This document shows positions 36,801 through 39,549 of a DNA stretch of 39,549 nucleotides, one piece after another. Positions within the stretch are counted from its first letter, which is position 1; every line of letters begins with the position of its first letter. The stretch is from a virus. Its lineage: Duplodnaviria > Heunggongvirae > Uroviricota > Caudoviricetes. The position numbers were made by a program. The stretch is from IMG/VR virus record IMGVR_UViG_2526164633_000032, positions 1-39,549 of that record; one strand, given 5' to 3'.

Positions 36801-39549
36801 CAATACAACTGAAGGTAGCGCCCGGTACTCAGACTGTGCCGTCCATGGAATATTTGAAAAGGGATCCATCCGTACCGGGCGTGTGATGATTCTGACTGAA
36901 GTCACTTGTCAGTTGTCAATCATTTATCATTAAAAATAATATATTTATTAGTGCATGATGTTTGCCATCTCATAGGCGTCAGCCAGTAACTCCATCTCTG
37001 ACTTGTTCAGCAAGGTGAATTCTTTCTTGCCTCCAACCACACCATCGGCATGAACAGGGACCAGCCATGGGTATTTTTCTCTTACTTCAGCCGGAGCTGC
37101 ATGCTGGTGGTGCCATCTACAAAGTGGCAATTGCTTTTTATGACAACCCGGCGCGGTACGACCGGCGATATGGTGCAGAGACACCTCATTAGATATTACT
37201 CCATGCATATAGCAGGCAATGCAGGGGAGAGCGCCAAGAGCATTGGCGACGCGCCGTTCCTCCGCCGTTGGTGTTCTCCCCTTCAAGCCACGAGATTTTA
37301 TTTTTACCACGCTTTTCCGCGTTTTGCTGGCTGGTGGGCGCTCTTTCTGTTTAGCGATACGGCGGTCGAGAGTATCCCGCATTTTCTGATATTGAGATTC
37401 TCGCCAGACCGGATCAGCCAACTTCTCCCGTTGCCGAGCGATCGCCCGTTCTCTGGCTGCCTTCTGCCACTTGCGGCACTGTTCAATTTTTTGTTCGATT
37501 GTTTTCATATGGCAAAAAAAAGGCGGCCTAATGGCCGCCAATGATGTCAAGGAGTGAAGTAATGGCAACGTCTTCGTAGTTGACAAAAACTGCGGCTCAA
37601 TTATAGCAATCAATTAGAGCAATGATAGATATTTTGTTTATCGCGAATCACATTTTTTCACTTCAGTACCTGTGTGCTATACTCCTTCTTGATTGATTGG
37701 ATGCGGAATACAAACCCGCTCTTTTGTGCAGCCTGGCTCCTTGCCAGGCTTTTTTATTTCATCATGGAAGCTGTTAATGCTTTGGACCTTGCTGAACTGA
37801 TTGAGAGGGCTTTGTCAACGTGCCCCAAAAATTCGCCAAACTCAGACATCACTTTAGCAAAACCGCGCCGTGCTTCTTCCTCGGTGGCGTTCATCACGAA
37901 ATGTTCAGCACCACGCATACTTTTGACAGGGAACGCAACGGATATTGAGTCAATATCAGGCATTCTATCGCTCAGCTTTACAGTGACAATGACGGCTGGC
38001 GACTGAATATTAGTGCTTACAGACAGCACTACATATTTTCCGTCGATGTTGAAATCCTTTCTCATATGTCACCATAAATATCAATGAATTAGAGCAATCA
38101 TTTACGCGTTAATGGCTAATCGCCATCTTCCAGCAGGCGCACCATTGCCCCTGTTTCACTATCCAGGTTACGGATATAGTTCATGACAATATTTACGTTG
38201 GTCCAGCCACCAGCTTGCATGATCTCCGGTATTGAAACTCCGGCGCGGGCCATATCTCGCGCGGCTCCGACACGGGCACTGTGTCCAGACCAGGCCAGGT
38301 ATCTCTGACCAGAGTCATCCTTAGCGCCGTAAATCAATCGATGAGTTGCTTCAAAAATCCCTTCCAGGGCGCGAGTTGATAGCTGGCTGGTGGCAGATGG
38401 CGCAGCTACGCCATTTTTTCTGACACGGCAAAACAAGTAGTTATTCGGATCATCAGCCACACCAGAGACAGAAATCCATCGCTCGACCAGTTTAGTTACC
38501 CCCAGGCTAAGTGCCTTCTCTACACCCGCGGTACTAACCAGCGTTTTCGTTCTGCCAATATGGATTAACATTCTCCCACCGTCTGTACGTGAGATATCTT
38601 TAACCCTGATCCTGGCAATTTCGGCTATACGTAACAGGGTGTTATAAGCGATCCCCAGAAATGCCAGATTACGTATATCCTGGCAGCGATCGCTATTTTC
38701 CATGAGTGAACGAACCTGGTCGAAATCAGTGCGTTCGAACGCCAATGCCTGTTTTGCACGTTCACCGGCATCAACGTTTTCTTTTCGAATCCGCCGCATG
38801 ACCAGTGAAACAGCATTGCTGTCACTTGGTCGTGGCAGCCCGGACCGACGATGAAGCATGTTTAGCTGGCCCAAATGTTGCTGGATAGTTTTTACTGCCA
38901 GACCGCGCGCCTGAAGATATAGAAGATAATCGCGAACATCTTCAGGTTCTGCGGGAAACCATTTCCGGTTATTCAACTTGCACCATGCCGCCCACGACCG
39001 GCAAACGGACAGAAGCATTTTCCAGGTATGCTCAGAAAACGCCTGGCGATCCCTGAACATGTCCATCAGGTTCTTGCGAACCTCATCACTCGTTGCATCG
39101 ACCGGTAATGCAGGCAAATTTTGGTGTACGGTCAGTAAATTGGACATTTAACACTCAGATAATGGTTTTAAGTAAAGTGTACAGGATCGGCTCTGCCTTT
39201 ACCTGTTTATGGTTCTCGTCATAGAAACGCCAGCGACCGCGCGTGCGTTCTATTTTCTCTTCACCGCGCGATAATGACAGTTGACAACTATCACGATCAA
39301 ACCCTTTTGCCCGCCAGTAACCACGGTTTTTCTCAAGCTCAATATGAGTGGACACTTTAGCAGCTGAATATCCCATTTTTCACCTCTGATTGATTGGTGG
39401 TGCTAAGTGCGCTACGCGAAATCTGGAGCACTAACACTGCCAACTTTTCACAGATTTTACGTAGCGCAAACTTGATCAAATGATCAAGTGATCACTATTT
39501 GACCTGATAAGGTATTGAACTGTATGGATTTACAGGTAAATTGATCATG

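Follow-up and report, generated by a model that had tools for sequence, protein, structure and literature searches.

The window analysed here is a stretch of 39,549 nucleotides whose source, judged by sequence identity, is a P1-like phage approximately 98% identical to P1. Over the last 1.55 kb of the window, identity is 98% to P1 and 97% to P7. Window position x corresponds to P1 nt 39583 − x, and the window ends at P1 nt 34. P1 numbering has its origin at the centre of lox, and nt 1–17 are the right lox arm (AF234172); the 34-bp loxP therefore lies 17–50 bp past the window end. The preliminary description had expected loxP beyond the window, and alignment with P7, P1 and X03453 does put it directly beside the same flank. 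The features of the region, in window coordinates, are the following.

38116..39147, minus strand: cre, 343 aa, protein 100% identical to P1 Cre
39155..39376, minus strand: cra (ORF1), 73 aa, first ORF downstream of the array; contains P2cre
39409..39467, minus strand: conserved inverted repeat GCGCTACGTAAAATCTG ... CAGATTTCGCGTAGCGC, between the array and cra
39454..39459, minus strand: −10 of P3cre/pR1, TAAAAT (P1 nt 124–129)
39473..39478, minus strand: first hexamer, 'Dam methylation site 3' of P1 (nt 106–109), with its GATC within the P3cre/pR1 −35
39479..39474, minus strand: −35 of P3cre/pR1, TTGATC (P1 nt 104–109)
39481..39486, minus strand: second hexamer, 'Dam methylation site 2' of P1 (nt 98–101), within the alternative pR1 −35
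39487..39482, minus strand: alternative −35 of pR1, TTGATC
39489..39494, minus strand: third hexamer, 'Dam recognition site 2' of P7 (nt 90–93), the variable unit of the array
39515..39542, plus strand: P2coi as given in curated records, TTGAAC (39515–39520), 16 bp, TAAATT (39537–39542)
39520–39535 (annotated 20-mer 39518–39537): LexA box CTGT-N8-ACAG, CTGTATGGATTTACAG, in the P2coi spacer
39542..39547, plus strand: lox-proximal hexamer, 'Dam methylation site 1' (P1 nt 37–40), overlapping the last base of the P2coi −10

TGATCA occurs 16 times in the 39.5-kb window, and the region upstream of cre holds four of these copies, at 39473–39478, 39481–39486, 39489–39494 and 39542–39547. The first three have a start-to-start period of exactly 8 bp (starts at 39473, 39481 and 39489), which is the spacing that the preliminary description had given. 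The fourth, there placed '50 bp away', starts 53 bp past the start of the third and is separated from it by a gap of 47 bp; the earlier figure was thus approximately right. The wording 'upstream of cre' was also correct once the strand is set, as cre is on the minus strand with its ATG at 39147. The cra-cre unit opens with cra, and the array is immediately upstream of that gene, 97–118 bp from the cra ATG and 326–347 bp from the cre ATG; the fourth hexamer is found 395–400 bp upstream of cre. The two cre-proximal units make up an 18-bp perfect palindrome, CTTGATCATTTGATCAAG (39471–39488).

This array is the sole place in the window where three GATCs occur within 24 bp or less. Three bare GATCs within 20 bp or less were seen in about 10% of mononucleotide shuffles, and the array is therefore non-random by its full hexamer and its regular period, not by GATC density alone. 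By chance, the window would be expected to hold 4e-6 to 3e-5 sets of three equally spaced TGATCA (period 6–15). Of its 16 TGATCA copies, twelve are found between 3388 and 12147, within the first 12 kb, and none of these twelve are clustered. Over the whole window, GATC is slightly over-represented (201 against 172 expected), a value matched by one of 100 shuffles.

Earlier annotation and promoters of the control region

The P1 record AF234172 annotates Dam sites 1–3 at nt 37–40, 98–101 and 106–109 (window 39543–46, 39482–85 and 39474–77), together with P3cre (−35 at 104–109, −10 at 124–129), P2coi (41–68) and a LexA site (46–65). In the P7 record AF503408, Dam sites are annotated at nt 37, 90, 98 and 106, and these four positions reproduce the pattern of the window exactly. 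Both records label these as 'Dam methylation/recognition sites within the regulatory region of cre'. P3cre of AF234172 is the promoter pR1 of Sternberg et al. (1986), and the record X03453 from that work lists two −35 hexamers for pR1 as alternatives, each of which falls precisely on one of the two cre-proximal TGATCA copies. The title of the paper names regulation by DNA methylation. Dam control of a cre promoter had been cited as described for P1, and both this title and the −35 hexamers of X03453 bear that out (Sternberg et al., 1986).

In the 135 nt that were compared, the cre regulatory region of P7 matches the window base for base. The pR1/P3cre locus of P1 is orthologous, with an identical −10, two TTGATC −35 hexamers, LexA box, P2coi and lox-proximal Dam site. 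Laboratory P1 differs from the window at the third site, which is TGACCA instead of TGATCA, and by a G-to-T change in the spacer. Since the locus is the orthologue of a described and annotated feature, the finding is already known: the TGATCA sites, the promoters and the Dam effect have been known for P1 since 1986, and the P1 and P7 GenBank records annotate them base by base.

We took the promoter assignments from the curated records and not from prediction. A consensus promoter scan of positions 38900–39549 found no promoter, because the pR1 spacer measures 14 or 22 bp (from the −10 to the two alternative −35 hexamers) and P2coi falls under the match threshold. pR1/P3cre is a weak, non-canonical sigma-70 promoter. 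With its start taken about 7 nt past the −10, the three GATCs of the array are situated at approximately −27/−30, −35/−38 and −43/−46 of P3cre. Within cra, the −35 of P2cre (pR2) is likewise a TTGATC with a GATC (39295–39300, minus strand; TGATCG in the cre sense). The Dam site of this second cre promoter is missing from those listed in the P1 record. When the array was compared by eye with the FNR, CRP and IHF consensus sequences, no convincing match was seen.

P2coi is divergent from cre and points out of the window, through loxP, toward imcA/imcB/coi. The fourth hexamer has its first base in common with the end of the P2coi −10 and takes up the stretch before the transcript start; it fits P2coi better than cre. 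The preliminary description had counted four Dam sites upstream of cre; the four GATCs are indeed annotated in AF503408, but the fourth belongs to P2coi. The presence of a LexA box in P2coi and its conservation in Cronobacter phage JK004 imply an SOS input to the lox-flanking control region.

The conserved inverted repeat beside P3cre has its left arm at 39451–39467, where it holds the P3cre −10, and its right arm at 39409–39425. An inverted pair of TTTCRCGTAGCG brackets the P3cre start. In every Cre/Dre-like lineage examined, this motif is conserved some 30 nt ahead of the first ORF; of the repeat, D6 has the right arm only, and this arm is also conserved across the D6-type lineages. The P1 and P7 records carry no annotation for the repeat. 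The repeat folds as a strong RNA hairpin (z = −4.6). An RNA function is nevertheless unsupported, as covariation was not above that of shuffled controls and no Rfam match was obtained for it. The inverted repeat may be a protein operator.

Variation among natural loci and diverged Cre-like lineages

Our census covers 82 natural P1-like loci (80 viral contigs and two genomes), and the 77 loci with sufficient flank yielded 58 distinct haplotypes of 400 bp each. All three hexamers of the array were found at 73 of the 82 loci and on 50 of the 58 haplotypes. Three sites, as in the window, are thus the usual state in nature, and laboratory P1 carries a less common two-site allele. The two −35 hexamers (39473 and 39481) are unchanged in all 82 loci. 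Where the third unit differs, it is TGACCA (3/82, the laboratory P1 type), TGAACA (1/82) or removed by an exact 8-bp contraction (5/82). The lox-proximal hexamer reads TGATCA in 72 loci and TGATTA in nine of this 82-locus census. The one-unit contraction, from three copies to two, was found on two different haplotypes and is therefore recurrent. What the comparison adds is the natural prevalence of the three-site allele, the exact 8-bp steps in copy number and the maintenance of the hexamers in diverged lineages. The five carriers of the 8-bp contraction (L008, L037, L043, L046 and L072) indicate recurrent slippage and copy-number variation.

In Cronobacter phage JK004, whose Cre is 79% identical, the control region has diverged and its layout is the same: the lox arm is followed by two TGATCA (8-bp period), a LexA-like box, two further TGATCA (7-bp period) and the conserved inverted repeat. 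The −10 of a P2coi-like promoter in JK004 abuts TGATCA, as it does in the window. One or two hexamers are present in Leclercia-type loci (Cre about 42%) and in two rox-type lineages, and three in Pantoea phage-plasmid loci. Among the lineages compared, D6 and two relatives have no TGATCA hexamers in the lox-to-ORF region. Hexamers are kept beside promoter-like elements, despite diverged flanks, in JK004, Leclercia, Pantoea, L212 and L219, and their spacing varies by lineage (7, 8, 14 and 15 bp). The pR1-equivalent −10 is poor in JK004 and Leclercia, and what is conserved there is the hexamers and the inverted repeat, not an obvious pR1. JK004 also carries a 1071-bp ORF (L095, 211–1281) inserted between the lox-proximal control region and cra-cre, and a homologue of this ORF precedes cra in the Pantoea alvi contig L087.

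The lox-to-first-ORF regions of 11 phage lineage representatives contain 17 TGATCA, compared with 0.5 expected, a contrast that is uncorrected for shared ancestry. Full TGATCA accounts for 17 of the 18 GATCs in these 11 regions and for 6% of GATCs window-wide, again with ancestry uncorrected.

Cre-like genes and lox-like sites also occur on non-phage Pantoea megaplasmids, where GATC clusters, mostly of the form GGATCC, follow lox in three of four cases. At the Cre-like locus of a Serratia plasmid, no GATC cluster was found after the lox-like site. The GGATCC clusters (L179, 2299–2333; L329, 684–729; L331, 702–718) are positioned after lox-like inverted repeats and before the conserved inverted repeat. 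As non-phage loci share GATC clusters, the GATC core is the common denominator and the 6-bp palindromic context is clade-specific. The recurrence of lox-adjacent, methylatable 6-bp palindromes across Cre-like systems suggests an old and general methylation-coupled control of Cre-type recombinases. It also raises the question of why the T...A flanks are retained beside lox in P1-like phages.

Probable Dam control of pR1 and competing readings

E. coli Dam is the methyltransferase that acts on GATC. In the study from 1986, pR1 activity was reportedly three- to four-fold higher without Dam methylation, and this effect is said to have been assigned to pR1, in line with the record annotation. This published reading is the best supported, and the promoter pR1/P3cre is probably used less when Dam has methylated the GATCs in its −35. 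Identity, positions and conservation come from the present analysis, and the promoters and the Dam effect from the literature and the curated records; the link to replication and the functions given to hexamers 3 and 4 are our inference.

Methylation would be carried out by host Dam and, late in infection, also by the phage Dmt/Dam. In P7, the phage dam/dmt gene is located at about 69–71 kb, outside the part of the genome that corresponds to the window. N6-methyladenine in the two TTGATC −35 hexamers would lead to less use of P3cre/pR1. In a prophage whose DNA is fully methylated, pR1 would give little cra-cre transcript; more would be made when one or both strands lack the methyl groups, as they do shortly after replication and while the phage replicates rapidly in the lytic cycle. 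The P7-type third hexamer would stretch the methylatable patch to about −45 and appears to be dispensable. The fourth, which extends from the P2coi −10 to the start, probably modulates the LexA-repressed P2coi and not cre. In support of this reading, the −35, the −10 and the LexA box are identical in the base-level alignment with P1 and P7, and the −35 hexamers are invariant whereas hexamers 3 and 4 are variable; the excess of TGATCA in diverged lineages and the GATC clusters of non-phage Cre-like loci also favour it. Against it stand the non-canonical spacer of pR1, the poor equivalent −10 in JK004 and Leclercia and the absence of the sites from D6-type lineages. Replication-linked expression would suit Cre, whose tasks are the resolution of plasmid dimers and the cyclisation of incoming DNA.

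The IS10 pIN and IS50 transposase promoters have a GATC in the core promoter, and their expression rises on transiently under-methylated DNA. By analogy, a GATC in the core promoter of a recombinase gene could couple rearrangement to replication in the P1-like phages as well. However, the sites of IS10 and IS50 are in or near the −10 and in the transposase-binding end, whereas those of the window are in the −35 of an upstream auxiliary operon promoter, and cre has two further promoters closer to the gene than pR1/P3cre.

Alternatively, the array could mainly be a SeqA-binding cluster, in which hemimethylated GATCs are sequestered after passage of the fork and P3cre and P2coi are transiently silenced or timed, with no direct effect of methylation on RNA polymerase. 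SeqA binds P1 oriR and is responsible for sequestration at oriC and dnaA. As in the clusters of oriC, the dnaA promoter and P1/P7 oriR, several close Dam sites are grouped in a regulatory region, and P1/P7 oriR has a comparable cluster of them. With three GATCs within 20 bp and one 53 bp off, the array has the number and distance of sites expected of a SeqA cluster (two or more within about 30 bp). Their phasing is another matter. SeqA prefers pairs of GATCs on the same helical face, but an 8-bp period puts neighbouring GATCs about 275 degrees apart and 16 bp corresponds to about 1.5 turns, so that the sites are on different faces and both spacings are out of phase by this rule. The P1/P7 oriR sites differ further in being of GGATCT type, with spacings of 7–23 bp, and in lying within an origin, whereas the array has no origin function or DnaA box. 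In addition, hexamer spacing is not conserved between lineages (7, 8, 14 and 15 bp), and the higher pR1 activity reported without methylation in 1986 needs no SeqA. We therefore regard SeqA binding as an unlikely main function of the array, although sequestration would not exclude a direct effect of Dam on pR1.

A pure Dam model leaves the retention of the T...A flanks (17/18 sites) unexplained. One proposal is that full TGATCA is the selected unit and is read by a hexamer-specific protein, with the pacase PacA/PacB as candidate; binding late in infection would then couple cre/coi transcription or use of the adjacent lox site to packaging and methylation. To our knowledge, the only TGATCA reader candidate in P1 is this pacase, which acts on the methylatable hexamers of pac. 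Besides the enrichment of TGATCA between lox and the first ORF (17 of 18 GATCs, against 6% in the window), several observations are in favour of such a reader. Across the first 100 kb of P7 (genome size 101.7 kb), clusters of at least two TGATCA within 20 bp were found solely at the array and in both arms of pac, and oriR has its Dam/SeqA sites in GGATCT form. The pac sites of JK004, Leclercia and the Pantoea phage-plasmids also consist of TGATCA, and the non-phage Cre-like loci have other GATC flanks, mostly GGATCC. A test of co-variation between pac and the cre array was uninformative, because TGATCA is present at pac in every lineage examined.

The geometry of the array is, however, unlike that of pac. 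The pac hexamers TGATCA/G depend on Dam, as described in the literature, and the preliminary description was right that TGATCA is the pac repeat unit; the unit and its methylatability are common to both sites, but geometry and location differ. In pac, seven TGATCA/G are arranged as 4 + 3, with spacings of 7/12/14 and 12/11 bp and a cleavage region of about 90 bp containing an IHF site between the arms (L004, 2224–2262 and 2344–2372). It is found inside the coding region of pacA, at about P1 nt 90.7–90.9 kb, some 4 kb away on the other side of lox. The array comprises 3 + 1 hexamers: three follow one another at a strict 8-bp period, and the fourth stands 47 bp apart, with the LexA box in the interval. 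All four are in intergenic promoter DNA. No match to the IHF motif WATCAANNNNTTR was seen by eye in 39495–39541. Arm number, spacing, location and the IHF site rule out the array as a second pac site.

Two further points speak against a reader of the full hexamer: hexamers have been lost in laboratory P1 and in some natural variants, and the sites of the Pantoea megaplasmids are uniform GGATCC palindromes without any pacase. Uniform flanks may therefore reflect shared descent or local duplication. We consider selection of TGATCA as the target of a pacase-like reader improbable. The broader version, in which P1-like phage-plasmids would maintain full TGATCA downstream of lox because the pacase or an unknown protein makes lox use, or expression of the recombinase or the anti-repressor, depend on how far the DNA is methylated and packaged, seems to us equally doubtful.

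There is also little to recommend the array as a neutral 8-bp microsatellite, generated by replication slippage and functional only in its two −35 units: exact 8-bp contractions on at least two haplotypes, mutation of the third unit in laboratory P1 and other loci and the occurrence of TGATCANN arrays of 3–9 copies in unrelated viral contigs and contexts agree with it, but three units are kept in 73 of 82 loci and 50 of 58 haplotypes, and diverged lineages retain hexamers at non-tandem spacings despite divergence of the flanks.

The TGATCA arrays outside the P1 group were also considered as a mechanistic lead, which was dropped, as their contexts are unrelated and have no common neighbouring function. 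Eight unrelated viral contigs contain TGATCANN arrays with an 8-bp period and 3–9 copies, among them L227 (864–917), L263 (6603–6672), L273 (95–116), L285, L300, L308 and L291 (6229–6258). In L227, a P4-type tyrosine integrase ORF has its 3′ end right beside the array; the other arrays are intergenic, in large and apparently unrelated contigs.
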